52,994 nucleotides of DNA, taken from NCBI RefSeq assembly GCF_003334765.1, contig NZ_QOWT01000028.1, one strand, 5' to 3'. The translations under genes were made by a program, and so were the position numbers. Source of the DNA: Escherichia coli (GTDB lineage: Bacteria > Pseudomonadota > Gammaproteobacteria > Enterobacterales > Enterobacteriaceae). Below the pieces are notes generated by a model. The model ran no database searches. It saw nothing but the letters and a program-made list of their open reading frames with translations, and was not told the origin of the DNA. Below, piece by piece: positions 45,124 to 46,254 of the stretch (position 1 is its first letter; each line of letters opens with the position of its first letter).

Positions 45124-45274
45124 TTAATTTGCATAGACCGTTTTCAGAGTAACCAGCGCATCGCTACGCCGCCAGCCAAAAACGCTGATAATTAGAAATT
45201 AATGATAAACAGGGAGGGATATCAGTGAAAGGCATGAGTCGATGAATGACTGCATGCCAATAACATGTGACAGG

Positions 45275-46189
45275 TTACGGCGCCAGAGCCAGCACCTCAG
45301 CCACCCACTGCTGGAAGCCTTTTACATCCAGATCCAATGCTACCTGTACATTGGCTGGTTTGCCCAGGCAACCGTCGATATCAACCATCGTCGTGCCTGA
45401 GGTAAATTCGCCTTGAGTTTCTACCGCGACAAAACACGGCTTGAGGGTGAATAAGTCCGGGCGCACCAGCCAGGCGATGGCGCAGAGATCGTGCATTCGC
45501 AGACCGCTTTGCATACTGCCGCTACGGTAGTGGCTAAACAGGGCGTGGAGCATTTTTCCGGTGCGATTCAACTCCGGCAAAGTAGCGAGATAGTCAGGGG
45601 TTAATATTGCCTGATTGGTGACATCCAGACCGCACATGACGATTTCGATTCCGCTACGGAAGACACAGGCAGCCGCTTCTGGATCGGCAGCGATATTAAA
45701 CTCGGCATTTGGTGTACAGTTGCCGCGACCAGAAGAACCGCCCATGATCACCAGACGACGAATATACGGTTTACATTCCGGGCATTGTGAAAGTAACAGC
45801 GCAATATTGGTTAACGGGCCAATGGCCACCAGGGTAACAGGCTCTGGTGCACGCATCAGGGCATCACGAATCGCCAGAAACGCTGGTATCCCGATTGGCT
45901 TTCGGTTGTGCTCAACAAAGTCGTAGCCAGCCATTCCCGATTCGCCGTGCACAGATGCTGCATCACGCGGTGCGCGTACCAGCGGCACAGCGGCTCCCTG
46001 GGCGAGCGGAATCTCCGCATTCCAGAAATGCAGCAGTTGCAGGGCGTTGCGGGTGGTTTTCTCAACCGAGACATTACCCGCGACGGTGGTCATCAGTTGC
46101 AGGTCGAGTTCGGGGGCAAAAATCGCAGCGGCAATGGCGACGGCATCGTCAATGCCGGGGTCAGTATCGAGGAAGATAGGTAAACGCAT
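45275..46189 (-). CDS. rihC: non-specific ribonucleoside hydrolase
   Basis: 304-aa [53 protein letters not shown]...; DTDPGIDD nucleoside-hydrolase motif. Confidence 0.93.
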
Positions 46190-46200
46190 GTTTTCTCCAT

Positions 46201-46226
46201 AAAAAATGCCGGTAACAAGACCGGCA
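46201..46226 (-). terminator. intrinsic terminator after ispH (end of the ribF-ileS-lspA-fkpB-ispH operon)
   Basis: Hairpin TGCCGGT-aacaag-ACCGGCA; on the minus strand it is followed by UUUUUU, then directly by the rihC RBS (AUGGAG) and ATG. Confidence 0.6.
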
Positions 46227-46254
46227 TTTTCGCATAACTTAGGCTGCTAATGAC

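Follow-up and report, generated by a model that had tools for sequence, protein, structure and literature searches.

The spacer between ispH and rihC in the Escherichia coli DNA analyzed here (a stretch of 52,994 nucleotides, hereafter the window) is probably a composite element, in which a Rho-independent terminator and an extended -10 promoter are laid over shared bases. A rihC promoter fits into this spacer of 65 nt (46254-46190, minus strand) because it overlaps the terminator, with the putative -10 region in the 5' flank of the stem and the transcription start in the loop. rihC transcripts made from it would escape the terminator, since a start in the loop leaves the 5' arm untranscribed. 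A preliminary description of this sequence had stated that there was no room for a rihC promoter in the spacer. Transcript start mapping, which is the check that the description itself had proposed, contradicts this statement: in the SMRT-Cappable-seq data of Yan 2018, a rihC start lies within the spacer (K-12 position 27263), and a conserved extended -10 motif is found in register with it. A hairpin that abuts a ribosome-binding site, then, need not mean that the downstream gene is without a promoter, as a promoter of the extended -10 type needs only approximately 20 bp and can sit inside a terminator.

Gene layout and the hairpin downstream from ispH

On the minus strand, the segment of the window from approximately 45.2 to 47.4 kb is the ileS-lspA-fkpB-ispH-rihC-dapB region of E. 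coli. A 2.2-kb query matched all of the 5426 complete E. coli genomes, in which fkpB, ispH, and rihC are annotated, and over the 181 nt that surround the spacer the window does not differ from K-12 MG1655. Coordinates were converted as K-12 = 27293 + (46189 - window position), which was verified on the K-12 sequence. Both flanking proteins scored well above the cut-offs of the respective NCBIfam equivalogs (IspH, 564.9 bits versus 420; RihC, 533.8 bits versus 382). The features of the junction are listed in Table 1. On direct reading of the minus strand, all the coordinates in the preliminary description were found to be correct (stem at 46207-46226, U-tract, GGAG, ATG at 46189, and spacer of 65 bp), and its observation that the hairpin directly abuts the rihC Shine-Dalgarno sequence was borne out.

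Table 1. Features of the ispH-rihC junction, in window coordinates
Feature	Position	Strand	Description and basis
ispH coding sequence	46255..47205	-	316 aa; stop TAA at 46257-46255; ORF list and RefSeq annotation of identical E. coli loci
Putative extended -10 motif TATGc (TRTGn)	46232..46236	-	T-17, A-16, T-15, G-14, and C-13 relative to the mapped start
Putative -10 hexamer GAAAAT	46226..46231	-	4/6 matches to TATAAT, including A-11 and T-7; last two bases are the bottom pairs of the stem
Terminator hairpin	46203..46230	-	46227-46220 paired with 46213-46206 as core stem, around the loop 46219-46214; further A:U pairs can form, out to 46230 with 46203
rihC transcription start	46219 (K-12 27263)	-	C, first loop base, with the ATG 30 nt downstream; SMRT-Cappable-seq of Yan 2018 (Supplementary Data 1, Rich_TTS sheet; Supplementary Data 2)
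rihC leader from the putative spacer promoter	46190..46219	-	30 nt; 3' arm and U-tract only, so that the terminator hairpin cannot form; deduced from the start position
Terminator U-tract TTTTTT (U6)	46201..46206	-	Sequence; T columns invariant in the 19-species alignment
rihC Shine-Dalgarno GGAG	46195..46198	-	5 nt between it and the ATG; conserved in orthologous spacers
rihC coding sequence	45275..46189	-	304 aa; ATG at 46189-46187; ORF list

Two further reading frames were considered in the region. The program-made ORF of ispH begins at a TTG (344 aa, 46255-47289, minus strand), 84 nt upstream of the annotated ATG at 47205, and thereby overlaps the end of fkpB; support for the annotated start (316 aa) comes from a full-length NCBIfam match, with residues 1-314 on profile positions 1-313. 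A small ORF starting at the ATG at 46235 (ATGCGAAAATGC...) was rejected as a coding feature, since neither its length nor its frame is conserved in relatives: its counterpart is ATG TGA in Kluyvera and has six codons in Citrobacter.

In the core of the hairpin, AUGCCGGU (46227-46220) pairs with ACCGGCAU (46213-46206) around the 6-nt loop CUUGUU. The 8-bp stem with five G:C pairs, the 6-nt loop and the U6 directly after the stem are the anatomy of an intrinsic terminator, and the location of the stem, which begins 28 nt past the ispH TAA and is followed by a co-directional gene, is in agreement with this function. The computed fold energies were -9.2 kcal/mol for the 6-bp core, -11.9 kcal/mol for 8 bp, and -14.6 kcal/mol for 11 bp, and the extension of the stem, formed by the upstream A-run paired with the U-tract, adds approximately 2.7 kcal/mol. 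The 81-nt region as a whole folded at -20.5 kcal/mol (z = -2.4, with 4 of 200 shuffled sequences equally stable), which is modest when taken alone. Conservation is the stronger evidence for the hairpin.

The spacer region is single-copy in 5415 of the 5426 complete E. coli genomes, 4539 of which are at least 99% identical to it over 100 nt; with one copy per genome, a REP-like repeated element was rejected. In a scan of one genome per species, ispH was located directly upstream of rihC in Escherichia, Citrobacter, Pseudocitrobacter, Kluyvera, Phytobacter, Pluralibacter, Cedecea, Dickeya, Mangrovibacter, and several other Enterobacteriaceae. All the spacers of these genera are 60-93 nt long and have the common order of hairpin, T-run, and GGAG. 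When 19 enterobacterial species were aligned, 94.6% of the stem cells were paired, as opposed to 23-43% with the 3' partner slid, and three of the nine stem pairs were altered in both partners (A:U to G:C, for instance). None of 500 shuffles reached the observed covariation score, and the hairpin is kept, with compensatory changes, from Escherichia to Dickeya. Given the stem pairing and covariation across the 19 species, we consider the hairpin to be a real, selected structure.

The preliminary description had taken the hairpin to be the ispH terminator, and both its anatomy and its position fit the intrinsic terminator of the ileS-lspA-fkpB-ispH operon. Considering the anatomy, the conservation, and the transcription unit b0027-b0029 described below, the hairpin, which is real, is almost certainly the terminator of this operon. 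It was missing from the terminator list of our consensus scan, which also reported no promoter for either the spacer or the 3' portion of ispH. By our reading of the scanner's rule, the hairpin was missed because pairing of the A-run with the T-run lets the maximal stem absorb the Ts that are required after the stem; we therefore take this result as a limit of the rule and not as counter-evidence. In published 3'-end data, the curated Term-seq tables of Adams 2021 contain no ispH 3' end and no entry for ispH or rihC, and TERMITe 2025 has no entry for either gene.

Some additional observations concern the same segment. The 3' end of ispH together with the terminator (46200-46284, minus strand) gave a match to the sRNA sroD (Rfam RF00370) of 26.6 bits (E = 0.006), below the gathering threshold of 50 bits, and membership of this family was rejected, the resemblance being probably one that is generic to terminators; the other Rfam matches were sub-threshold as well. 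Among the variants listed, the most divergent full-length E. coli spacer, from E. coli p4A, has 97% identity, with substitutions in the second codon of rihC and in the part of the spacer that is not conserved (GCAGCC to GTAGTC), and with the TG/-10 motif and the hairpin intact. In E. coli strain E423 (NZ_CM173464.1, locus L082, 2578-3660), an insertion of the IS30-family element ISApl1 lies past the U-tract and ahead of the rihC Shine-Dalgarno sequence, separating rihC from the terminator-promoter and from ispH alike. GG is present at both junctions of this insertion and may be a target duplication.

The rihC transcription start and the motif upstream of it

A primary 5' end of transcripts covering rihC was reported at K-12 position 27263, on the forward strand (Yan 2018). 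In rich medium, 59 reads start at this position, of which 38 end at 28257, just past rihC, while three pass 28257 and 13 have their ends in the next 50 bp. Two operons, b0030 (rihC) and b0030-b0031, were called from this start. The method used, SMRT-Cappable-seq, yields full-length reads after 5'-triphosphate ends are capped and enriched, and positions are kept only if enriched over an uncapped control. Since starts within 5 bp are merged, the position 46219 is good to a few bases, and it comes from this single data set. The start base, C, is less common than a purine. The transcript from 27263 to 28257 is in the rich-medium sheet only and is absent from the M9 sheet, and rihC has one transcriptional context in M9.

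The same data set includes transcripts that arrive from upstream. The unit b0027-b0028-b0029, from a start at 25013 and listed with no TTS coordinate, stops before rihC is covered, and the "extended operons" of Supplementary Data 3 include the read-through unit b0027-b0028-b0029-b0030 (lspA-fkpB-ispH-rihC). Thus, the upstream transcripts are of two kinds, ending short of rihC or continuing into it. For the rihC units, Data 2 contains no ispH-internal start. The preliminary description had deduced that rihC must be expressed by read-through or from a promoter inside ispH; read-through is indeed on record, but it is not the only route, as rihC has a start of its own in the spacer, and both routes exist. 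Our literature search for rihC together with ispH, promoter or terminator returned nothing relevant.

The sequence TATGcGAAAAT (46236-46226), upstream of the mapped start, has the features of an extended -10 promoter, i.e., TG at -15/-14, A-11, and T-7, and in this one data set the hexamer ends exactly 7 nt before position 46219. The hexamer is weak, with 4/6 matches in E. coli and 3/6 (GAAGAT) in most relatives, and the best candidate for a -35 element, GTCATT at a spacing of 17 bp, has 2/6 matches. A TGn followed by a hexamer with at least 4/6 matches occurs a single time on the minus strand between 45100 and 47400 (2.3 kb), and 62 times in the 53-kb window when both strands are counted (a frequency of 5.8e-4 per nt per strand), so that the probability of one falling by chance in the right register, to within +/-1 nt, is roughly 0.002. 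The consensus scan is blind to extended -10 promoters because it requires a -35 match. The putative promoter would presumably be used by sigma-70. The RNA from the start to +40 (CUUGUUACCGGCAUUUUUUAUGGAGAAAACAUG...) was also folded, and no hairpin formed before the U-tract, which is located at +14 to +19.

For a comparative test of the motif, the species loci were pooled with 120 metagenome contigs, retrieved by a degenerate pattern matching the 3' end of ispH, giving 42 distinct rihC-linked sequences from the stop codon to the hairpin. Conservation was expressed as the frequency of the commonest base, counted from the hairpin as anchor; since these 42 spacers are not phylogenetically independent, the values are descriptive counts and not probabilities. 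Conservation sets in sharply at -17 in these spacers, which come from many genera: positions -28 to -18 are 36-57% conserved, followed by T-17 (95%), R-16 (93%), T-15 (93%), and G-14 (90%). A-11, A-8, and T-7 are present in every spacer (42/42 each), with G or C tolerated at -9, -10, and -12. Only T-17 to A-11 count as independent evidence for a promoter, because A-8 and T-7 are also constrained by the stem.

Loci in which ispH is followed by a convergent gene served as a natural control. These encode a LysR-like regulator (L165), a response regulator (L090 and L112), or a short-chain dehydrogenase (L167 and L091). In all of them the hairpin and the T-run are present and the TG and the -10 bases are absent, and two of these cases retain the GCCGG...CCGGC base of the stem. 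The A-rich flank in E. coli is not needed for termination in the reverse direction, because both flanking genes run the same way. On one metagenome contig (L093), a different co-directional gene follows ispH, yet the TATGAGAAAAT-hairpin arrangement is retained. The gene that replaces rihC there, and also on a second contig (L194), codes for a protein of roughly 400 aa of unknown function; in L194, the hairpin downstream from ispH differs.

Proposed function of the spacer and competing explanations

If the spacer is composite, polymerases from the ileS-lspA-fkpB-ispH operon would transcribe both arms of the hairpin and the U-tract, where most presumably terminate, and a fraction would continue past the terminator into rihC. 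A sigma-70-type holoenzyme would bind TATGcGAAAAT, with no usable -35 element, over the 5' half of the terminator. The A-rich -10 region would then double as the bottom of the stem and its 5' flank, the GC-rich 5' arm as the discriminator, and the first base of the loop as +1. The rihC mRNA made from this promoter would carry the 3' arm and the U-tract only, a combination from which the terminator could not fold, and its 30-nt leader would end in GGAG-N5-AUG. As a result, the housekeeping operon would be insulated from rihC, and rihC would be separately controlled, all within 65 bp. Judging from the aligned spacers, the terminator and promoter signals are held in a fixed register across genera.

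Separate control would be in line with the catabolite repression that has been reported for rihC (Petersen and Moller 2001, cited in PMC4824794). Such repression is unlike what would be expected for an essential isoprenoid gene such as ispH, and we count it in favor of a separate regulation of rihC; an overlapping promoter would explain how a gene reported to be under catabolite repression can sit 65 bp behind an essential operon. No CRP site (TGTGA-N6-TCACA) with at least 8 of the 10 core matches was present between -200 and +40, and thus the layout of a CRP-activated class I or class II promoter, with a site near -41.5, -61.5 or a similar position, was not found there. The sole CRP-like site with 7/10 matches in this interval, centered at -190.5, corresponds to the background rate.

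The model of the preliminary description, in which the spacer holds only a terminator and a ribosome-binding site and rihC is expressed solely by read-through or from a promoter inside ispH, accounts for the lspA-fkpB-ispH-rihC transcripts of Yan 2018. It also agrees with a consensus promoter scan that is empty for the spacer and the 3' part of ispH, and with a -35 match of 2/6 at best. That scan, however, needs a -35 match and cannot detect promoters of the extended -10 type, and the model has no place for a primary 5' end in the spacer, for transcripts covering rihC alone, or for a conserved TRTGn-NANNAT motif in exact register with the start. In addition, Data 2 of the same study gives no ispH-internal start for the rihC units, and passive read-through from a housekeeping operon would not readily bring about catabolite repression of rihC; we regard this model as quite unlikely. 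The mapped end could also be an artifact or a processing product, that is, a cleavage or a cDNA stop in the loop, in which case the A-rich flank would be only the A-tract of the terminator, pairing with the U-tract. A hairpin loop is a plausible RNase site or reverse-transcriptase stop, the start is a pyrimidine in such a loop known from a single data set, pairing of the A-run with the U-run does stabilize the stem, and A-8 and T-7 are stem bases. Against this, capped 5'-triphosphate ends are what the method selects for, with an unenriched control as the reference; an A-tract leaves the conserved T-17, R-16, T-15, and G-14, as well as the G or C at -9, -10, and -12, unexplained; the ispH terminators that face convergent genes are without the motif; and a motif would seldom fall by chance so close to the right register. 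An artifact is therefore unlikely in our view.

It is most improbable that the hairpin is not mainly a terminator and is instead an attenuator or translational element of rihC, which modulates the access of ribosomes to the Shine-Dalgarno sequence in the read-through mRNA. The base of the hairpin is only 8 nt from GGAG, and the lack of an ispH 3' end in the curated tables of Adams 2021 would fit such a role, but both GGAG and AUG are outside the stem, and the computed accessibility of the Shine-Dalgarno sequence showed no clear difference between the read-through RNA and the RNA from the rihC start. Moreover, a similar hairpin with a T-run follows ispH where there is no co-directional gene, which fits a terminator. 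Within the composite reading that we prefer, the overlap might further act as a coupling device, making the output of rihC dependent on the traffic of the upstream operon without read-through, a proposal to which we give little credence. In one variant, a polymerase releasing the ispH transcript at the U-tract, 17-20 bp downstream from the rihC start, would stay on the DNA and re-initiate ("RNAP recycling"); in the other, elongating or terminating polymerases would occlude the overlapping promoter.

Relation to other terminators and promoters, and the rihC-dapB junction

The closest specific precedent known to us for the composite terminator-promoter proposed here is the overlap of the frd terminator with the ampC attenuator in E. 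coli, reportedly described by Grundstrom and Jaurin in 1982, where ampC is said to start upstream of the hairpin, so that the hairpin attenuates ampC. The two cases are alike in that a single hairpin is shared by both genes of a very short junction, where the promoter of the downstream gene would overlap the terminal part of the upstream operon. The difference is that the rihC start is in the loop, and its own transcripts would thereby escape the terminator, whereas the ampC start precedes the hairpin; a leader attenuator of the ampC/frd type was not found, since the 5' arm is not transcribed from the promoter of rihC itself.

Internal leaky terminators and secondary promoters are common in E. 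coli operons, as at the sdhCDAB-sucABCD junction (Conway 2014). The ispH-rihC spacer resembles the intrinsic and leaky terminators of this species in its GC-rich 8-bp stem, 6-nt loop, and U6, in its partial read-through, and in the presence of a secondary promoter for the downstream gene. It differs from leaky terminators such as that of sdhCDAB-sucABCD in that the secondary promoter would be inside the terminator (-10 in the stem flank, +1 in the loop) instead of beside it. With the extended -10 (TGn/TRTGn) promoters of sigma-70 (Mitchell et al. 2003; Barne et al. 1997; both as summarized in 10.64898/2026.02.12.705533), the putative rihC promoter shares TG at -15/-14, T-17, A-11, and T-7, as well as a poor -35 and a distance of 7 nt from the hexamer to the start. 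Unlike them, it has as discriminator an unusually GC-rich terminator arm (GCCGGT) and a weak hexamer (GAAAAT or GAAGAT), and it is known from sequence and a mapped start.

The term "combined terminator-promoters" was used in a 2026 preprint (10.64898/2026.02.12.705533) for T7 class II terminators (CJ and VSV) that act as E. coli promoters via TGnTA; according to its authors, combined terminator-promoters that use TGn merit attention and may permit polymerase recycling. Here too, one short sequence would be a stop for the incoming polymerase and a start via an extended -10. Those elements, however, are hairpin-less class II terminators studied with T7 RNAP in constructs, whereas the ispH-rihC element is a natural class I hairpin, served by the host polymerase and conserved across genera. 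The junction would thus be a natural, conserved class I example of a combined terminator-promoter, and a convenient model for such elements, for transcriptional interference, and for polymerase recycling. For the annotation of E. coli, this gives rihC a 30-nt leader and a putative promoter that is specific and testable. Both components are of textbook kinds, and the arrangement is a tidy but ordinary overlap of signals in a compact junction, both of which are missed by scanners that require a -35 or let the A-run absorb the T-run.

The next junction, between rihC and dapB (45195-45263, minus strand), is packed likewise. The rihC transcript end (K-12 28257, window 45225; Yan 2018) comes after a weak hairpin (about 45263-45231) whose tail is only UUU, and falls inside the -35 hexamer, TTCACT, of a promoter-like site reported by the scan at 45229-45202. 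The expected start of this site, at about 45195, is the published dapB start at 28287.
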